From an uncultured Phycisphaeraceae bacterium (GTDB lineage Bacteria; Planctomycetota; Phycisphaerae; UBA1845): a stretch of 64,000 nucleotides of DNA. Numbering within the stretch: the stretch's first letter is position 1; each line of letters begins with the position of its first letter. Positions 21,363 to 21,391 of this stretch are shown one piece after another. The stretch is from assembly GCA_964416845.1 (NCBI GenBank), contig CAYQFV010000002.1, forward strand, positions 4,525-68,524, written 5' to 3'. The position numbers were made by a program, and so were the translations under genes. Below the pieces are notes generated by a model that searched no databases, was not told where the DNA came from, and saw only the letters and a list, made by a program, of their open reading frames with translations.

Positions 21363-21391
21363 TGACAAACGCGGGGGGGGGGGGATTAAAC
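21363..21391 (+). promoter_or_regulatory. Candidate promoter: TTGACA box followed by a G11 homopolymer in the spacer
   Basis: TTGACA is at 21363-21368. An uninterrupted run of 11 G is at 21374-21384. A/T-rich ATTAAAC follows at 21385-21391, where a -10 would fall with a 16-18 nt spacer. The site is about 100 nt upstream of the first Cys-rich gene. The -10 match is weak. Confidence 0.3.

Follow-up and report, generated by a model that had tools for sequence, protein, structure and literature searches.

Does a long homopolymeric run of G, lying in front of two genes for cysteine-rich exported proteins, work as a slippery promoter tract that switches these genes, or is it a conserved feature of constant length? 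The question is raised by one locus of the window, by which we mean the whole 64-kb stretch of DNA analysed, and by an original prediction that had placed the run in the spacer of a candidate promoter and proposed slipped-strand phase variation of the gene pair.

The G tract and the genes that follow it

The run had been described as 11 G at 21374-21384. It is one base longer, an uninterrupted stretch of 12 G (G12) at 21373-21384 of the forward strand, corresponding to C12 on the other strand. The perfect TTGACA announced upstream of it is present, at 21362-21367 and not, by one base, at 21363-21368, and the five nucleotides said to separate hexamer and run are AACGC. ATTAAAC follows the run directly and at a -10-like distance, as described: with G12, exactly 17 nt separate TTGACA from ATTAAA (21385-21390). 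The order of elements within 21340-21420 is …GACAAAATGC, TTGACA, AACGC, GGGGGGGGGGGG, ATTAAAC and CGATTG…. From the end of the tract to the ATG of cys1 (21488) there are 103 nt, in agreement with the predicted distance of about 100 nt to the exported-protein pair. The features of the locus are the following:

20576-21091, + strand: NYN-domain gene of the YacP type, upstream of the intergenic region
NYN gene to cys1, + strand: intergenic region of 396 nt holding G12, delimited from the gene calls
21362-21367, + strand: TTGACA, a perfect -35-like hexamer read from the sequence, identical in the related contig L003 (described below)
21373-21384, + strand: G12 homopolymer, from the run listing, also G12 in contigs L001 and L002 and in the diverged L003
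21385-21391, + strand: ATTAAAC, A/T-rich, a weak -10 match (ATTAAA at N17, GATTAA at N16, TAAACC at N19), conserved in L003
21476-21480, + strand: Shine-Dalgarno-like GGGAG, read from the sequence, 7 nt before the cys1 ATG
21488-22012, + strand: cys1, 174 aa, orphan family, N-terminus hydrophobic, six-Cys module at the C-terminus with ECNCV as its end
22059-22631, + strand: cys2, 190 aa, paralogue of cys1, Sec-type signal peptide (…THAFA|NDGG), ECNCL at the C-terminus
3' of cys2, convergent: gene of the PTPS (6-pyruvoyl-tetrahydropterin synthase) family, from the gene calls

The statement that no comparable tract exists elsewhere in the window is borne out, the second-longest G or C runs of the 64 kb being G6 and C7, which leaves G12 as the sole run longer than 7. 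Runs of at least 10 G are expected 0.04 times, and none of 100 dinucleotide-preserving shuffles of the window matched the observed count; in about 45 kb of other fetched loci, unrelated as well as distantly related, the longest run is 7. With 12 nt the tract is above the length of about 8 nt or more at which mononucleotide runs are regarded as capable of slipping. On the other hand, its surroundings are ordinary. TTGACA is found 19 times on the two strands of the window, against about 18 expected from a base composition calculation, i.e. without enrichment, and the arrangement TTGACA-N15-19-six A/T is observed once, against 0.53 expected, with at least one occurrence in 37% of shuffles. G12 itself is far beyond chance whereas the combination of TTGACA and A/T bases is within it.

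The two genes downstream are paralogues (32% identity, E = 3e-17) and have in common a module with six cysteines, C-E-L-V-x-T…F-x-C-x-G-x-C-x4-C-K…R-x-E-C-N-C. Their products are predicted to be secreted or exported from signal-type N-termini judged by eye, and are in this respect, again by eye, the surface or secreted products expected of contingency-controlled genes. Together with the atypical GC and GC3 and with the signal of exchange relative to L003 described below, these N-termini agree with the earlier view of the pair as exported and accessory. Neither protein has a match in Pfam, NCBIfam, PHROG or the PDB sequences. A search of 5.8 billion proteins with cys1 returned itself as the sole match, and an exhaustive HMM search of 1.8 billion representatives added two further relatives only, P0005 and P0006, both distant. 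The AlphaFold model of the Cys-rich protein is all-beta and poor (pLDDT 56.5), and Foldseek found nothing below E = 0.6 for it in the PDB. On a 1.2-kb contig (L029, Logan ERR10503253), the gene for P0005 takes second place in a comparable pair: positions 1-88 are the 3' end of another gene, which terminates in …IRIECNCV. The tandem pair is therefore conserved in a distant lineage. P0006, the only multi-module relative, has 345 aa and two six-Cys modules (L030 1-6431, Logan SRR20820740). It stems from a low-GC organism, with the 3' end of a tRNA gene adjacent and GmrSD, HEPN and TIR-like genes downstream, a setting that looks like a defence or integration island.

On the upstream side, the closest homologues of the NYN protein outside L003 are 52-57% identical, one of them labelled Phycisphaerae UBA1845, a label that makes a planctomycete, perhaps Phycisphaerae-like, the probable source of the window; their loci contain neither a cys pair nor any run above 7, so that they are of no use for comparing the tract. 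An exact-protein look-up with a 189-aa NYN ORF gave no match, the called gene being 171 aa. About 2.5 kb upstream of the tract there is a gene for a RusA-family Holliday-junction resolvase (18261-18947, + strand), which adjoins a gene for a 2-amino-3-ketobutyrate CoA ligase-like aminotransferase. RusA-family resolvase genes are typically phage-derived.

Conservation of the tract and of the cassette around it

Exact-protein look-ups led to the same population and to L003, and to nothing else. The locus was recovered in this way, 100% identical to the window and with G12, on a 13.6-kb JGI contig (sample 3300023444) and on a 3.4-kb Logan contig (SRR9849951), and these three assemblies represent one population. 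L003 is a 2.7-kb contig from another metagenome (JGI 3300013233), reached via a cluster mate of the cys1 protein, and constitutes the sole second lineage in the databases searched. It is about 90% identical to the window overall and about 12% diverged in the intergenic region; it contains exactly 12 G, and the base directly 5' of the tract is T, not C. The check for length heterogeneity across other assemblies and strains that had been proposed with the original prediction thus turned up none: the tract is G12 in all four sequences (the window, L001, L002 and L003; consensus assemblies of two lineages, one of them the single related lineage). There is no length difference between these two lineages, a comparison of consensus assemblies, which cannot reveal heterogeneity within a population; the contigs run unbroken through G12 and are uninformative on length variation at that level.

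The original prediction had also named an assembly or sequencing artefact as an outcome that would end the matter. Beyond the general notoriety of poly-G, e.g. in two-colour sequencing chemistry, nothing speaks for such an origin. The tract is internal in contigs of 3.4, 13.6 and 68.6 kb produced by different assemblers, and it is present with diverged flanks in the independent metagenome of L003. Because the assemblies of the same population and the diverged L003 all carry G12, we exclude an artefact with near certainty.

Wider scans brought no further copy of the tract. When metagenome contigs were scanned for the 21-mer of the left flank, CGACAAAATGCTTGACAAACG, 25 loci came up, all of them chance matches and none with a G tract, which correspond to one unrelated gut-bacterial locus or to one other unrelated contig. 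CGACAAAATGCTTGACAAACG recurs exactly in this conserved gut-bacterial locus (…TTGACAAACGCTCTTGACGAGTGTATCTTTGCAAT…; L004-L028, mostly from human gut), apparently by coincidence, the region matched there being promoter-like but unrelated. The viral contig scan yielded no relative, and the one match of the genome contig scan with protein alignment, an OmpR-type response regulator of a Rhodospirillales MAG, is spurious.

The comparison with L003 delimits two further features:

21322-21396, + strand: best-conserved intergenic block, holding TTGACA, G12 and ATTAAACCGATT; L003 differs at 2 of its 75 nt, 21337 and 21372
about 21320-22640, + strand: low-GC, low-divergence cassette of regulatory block, cys1 and cys2, from the L003 comparison and composition

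The GC content is 50-55% in about 21000-22750 vs. 58-64% in the flanks, with a reversed GC skew, and GC3 is at most 0.56 in the cys genes while the neighbouring genes have 0.72-0.77. Counted per 60 nt, the differences from L003 fall sharply at about 21320 and rise again at about 22640, just past the cys2 stop codon. In terms of dS, cys1 (0.083) and cys2 (0.127) are set against flanking values about four times higher for the NYN (0.39) and PTPS (0.50) genes; the dN/dS of the cys genes is about 0.37, and about 6-7% of sites differ in the non-coding part of the cassette. The boundaries of the cassette coincide with a functional unit, and no direct or inverted repeats were found flanking it. This pattern suggests that the cassette was exchanged between lineages, or swept, after the flanks had diverged; judged by the drop in divergence and the contrast in dS, the promoter-proximal DNA and the two genes would have moved as one unit. 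The block 21322-21396 is presumed to be the regulatory region and at the same time the 5' edge of this cassette. G12 sits 50 nt inside that edge. Because it lies inside the cassette, and there in the best-conserved intergenic stretch, the tract seems tied to the cys genes, and a regulatory role is suggested for it.

The absence of substitutions within the tract is not informative as such, since only about 0.8 would be expected at about 6% divergence and the deficit is not significant. The constant length is of more interest. A run of 12 G is intrinsically prone to strand slippage, and from published homopolymer indel rates we infer that a neutral run of 12 nt would have changed its length many times over a divergence of about 6-7% (dS of about 0.1). 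Because the length is identical despite this expected instability, it appears to be under selection, at a position that would be sensitive to length. An identical length is compatible with a switch that favours G12 and equally with a plain fixed spacer.

Promoter candidates around the tract

A sigma-70 scan reported no site in 20900-22900. The scores given here are from our own simple sigma-70 weight matrix, for which the 90th percentile of random coding controls is 8.9 bits. The site at the tract scores 8.4 bits with GATTAA at N16, 8.2 with TAAACC at N19, 6.8 at N18 and 6.3 with ATTAAA at N17, and none of the four -10 hexamers (GATTAA, ATTAAA, TTAAAC, TAAACC) combines A at position 2 with T at position 6. 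The -10 match had been called weak from the beginning, and at 6.3-8.4 bits it is. By comparison, likely promoters of the window, which do have A2 and T6, reach 12-18 bits: 13.0 for TTGATT-N17-CATCAT upstream of a tRNA gene, 14.5 for TTGACA-N16-TACGAT at 27573, 16.1 for TTGACT-N16-TAAACT and 17.8 for TTTACA-N16-TATAAT in 41467-41541. From these sites, sigma-70-like promoters of the form TTGACn/TAnnnT appear to be in use in this genome. The tRNA gene (63037-63108, - strand), with its site in 63109-63180 (- strand), offers an internal reference for what a promoter looks like here. A run of nine A at 27519-27527 lies 46 nt upstream of the TTGACA-N16-TACGAT site (27573-27600) in the divergent intergenic region 27357-27750, and could be an UP-element-like A-tract.

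When the length of the tract is varied in the model, the matrix gives differing scores across G10-G14, with G10 (11.3 bits) and G13 (10.1 bits) above G12, which forms a local minimum of the score. An ECF-type pair of -35 and -10 elements (AAC…CGT), considered by eye, was dismissed, its spacing of 21 nt being too long at G12. A second, tract-free candidate is closer to cys1:

21423-21451, + strand: alternative promoter candidate TTCATC-N17-GACAAT, 7.9 bits in the window

In its L003 counterpart, TTGATC-N17-GACAAT, a preceding TGT makes the -10 an extended one and the score is 12.0 bits. This candidate is as good as the tract site in the window and much better in L003, as far as matrix scores go. 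If it is the real promoter, the tract would be located roughly 75-85 nt upstream of the transcription start, as estimated from the position of the -10 hexamer, and could phase an upstream site in the manner of sabA instead of acting as a core spacer. The reading of TTGACA-N17-ATTAAA as a promoter with the tract as its spacer finds no statistical support.

Contingency tract or fixed element

Taken from the conservation of block and length, G12 is probably a selectively maintained, length-sensitive cis-regulatory tract and a candidate contingency locus. Under the mechanism that we propose, it would be a genuine element, maintained by selection, at the 5' edge of a cassette of two genes for secreted Cys-rich proteins, and its length would set the geometry of the promoter region of this cassette, either by fixing how far the TTGACA -35 hexamer is from the melting region downstream of it or by phasing the conserved upstream block relative to a core promoter closer to cys1. 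Slippage would keep generating G11 and G13 variants with altered expression, the outcome being a transcriptional contingency tract, of phase or rheostat type, like those of porA and tp0126. The tract would then lie in a promoter, its length would affect expression and this length would vary in the population. That length-dependent regulation at G12 produces slippage variants is a tentative reading, to which we give a probability of roughly 0.4.

The nearest precedents come from Treponema pallidum. In tp0126, which encodes an OmpW homologue, the poly-G is situated between -35 and -10 and transcription is best with a spacer of 17 nt (PMC7864442). For Treponema, transcription starts have been mapped, 7-11 G occur within isolates and reporters show the dependence on length. 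The likeness consists in a poly-G of about 8-12 nt that precedes genes whose products are exported or reach the outer membrane, as is also the case for tprE/G/J/L, and, for tp0126, in the 17 nt that here separate TTGACA from ATTAAA. Unlike in Treponema, the -10 is not credible here and the sole comparison, L003, shows no difference in length. Neisseria meningitidis has a poly-G in the promoter spacer of porA and a poly-C over the -35 of opc, according to the summary in PMC7864442. Should the spacer reading hold, G12 would resemble both in that a homopolymer inside a sigma-70 promoter sets the spacing and by this the expression level of a surface protein. Neisseria are, however, host-adapted pathogens with many such loci and strain-variable lengths, whereas in this environmental, planctomycete-like organism we see one tract in 64 kb, with the same length in both lineages. 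The poly-T tract of sabA is positioned next to the promoter, outside the core promoter. This Helicobacter pylori 'rheostat' has a mechanism that was experimentally demonstrated. It is the model to follow if 21423-21451 is the true promoter, since the tract there tunes expression from outside the core through upstream DNA phasing (PMC4081817); the difference is that sabA has a T tract and our locus a G tract. With the precedents G12 shares the run, the proximity of a -35-like hexamer and the exported-protein targets; it is a candidate member of the class.

For a contingency locus speak, by analogy, features that make up its usual setting, namely a real and unique tract, a perfect -35-like hexamer at 17 nt, the most conserved block and a cassette of exported genes; exported products, atypical GC and codon usage and recent exchange likewise form a profile typical of contingency-controlled genes in known systems. 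Against it are the lack of a credible -10, the fact that G12 is not the best-scoring length, the presence of a rival promoter and the invariant length in two lineages. The last of these is what would be expected if the tract were an element of fixed length that serves the conserved upstream block as a spacer or as a site of protein binding, its 12 G maintained by purifying selection and free of useful switching, with slipped variants that are rare, deleterious and biologically useless. The absence of any length difference between the two lineages or among the assemblies, the highly conserved flanks and the host, a free-living environmental bacterium from a group without documented contingency loci, all fit this view. 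However, a pure homopolymer is the least stable way of encoding a fixed spacer, and repeat and k-mer searches found neither a palindrome nor a repeated operator-like motif near the tract; a 14-mer shared with 25502-25515 falls inside a coding region there and is coincidental. We consider a fixed element possible though doubtful. A tract without variation at read level would be no more than an odd spacer that is conserved.

An improbable alternative is that the homopolymer has no role at all, being a neutral passenger of foreign low-GC DNA next to a TTGACA that is there by coincidence. The foreign-like composition of the cassette, a promoter score in the random range, a TTGACA and A/T arrangement within chance expectation and the lack of substitutions in the 12 nt, which is nothing unusual when about 6% of sites differ, are all in line with it. 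It does not sit well with a length kept exactly over a dS of about 0.1 despite the inferred instability, with a location inside the best-conserved non-coding block, or with the absence of comparably long runs from the rest of the window and from the about 45 kb of other loci. Highly improbable, in our view, is a role through non-B DNA or RNA structure, in which a G-quadruplex-like or rigid G/C segment of the non-template strand modulates transcription, or the tract is part of a 5'-UTR element. Although a two-tetrad quadruplex could arise on the coding strand from a G2-type motif within G12, a regular-expression search of 21301-21460 found no canonical motif of four G3 runs with loops of 1-7 nt, the intergenic region folds no better than its shuffles (z = +1.4), no Rfam family matches 21000-21600 even with E allowed to reach 10, and L003 has not kept the C-rich partner at 21230-21240. 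The tract could finally be read as a translational switch, encoding GGGG in an ORF of 29 codons (ATG 21358 to stop 21447) whose frameshifts would alter the coupling to cys1. This ORF does span the tract, but it has no Shine-Dalgarno sequence and stops 40 nt before cys1, and in L003 a longer GTG start is lost and a change of TCA to TGA truncates it; with no ribosome-binding site and a truncated counterpart it was rejected, and the chances of such a switch are very remote.

In its boldest form, the contingency reading has a slippery promoter G12 that stochastically toggles or tunes the horizontally exchanged cys1-cys2 cassette and represents the first reported simple-sequence contingency switch of a free-living member of the Planctomycetota; this we consider unlikely. 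To our knowledge, nearly all documented cases of repeat-driven phase variation are from host-adapted pathogens, and we found no report of repeat-mediated phase variation in Planctomycetes in the open-access papers searched. Were a case verified in an environmental planctomycete, the mechanism would be known from one more phylum and from another lifestyle, and there would be a way into the function of this orphan family of secreted Cys-rich proteins. If true, the bold form of the reading would mean bet-hedging in environmental populations over an extracellular trait, such as exposure to phages or predators, adhesion or antagonism.

At some distance from the tract, the window contains two copies of the Acido-Lenti-1 RNA motif (Rfam RF01687), at 49659-49705 (- strand) and 49808-49853 (+ strand), with scores of 42.7 and 46.4 bits and about 100 nt apart. 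The family was described from Acidobacteria and Lentisphaerae and is found here in a probable planctomycete.
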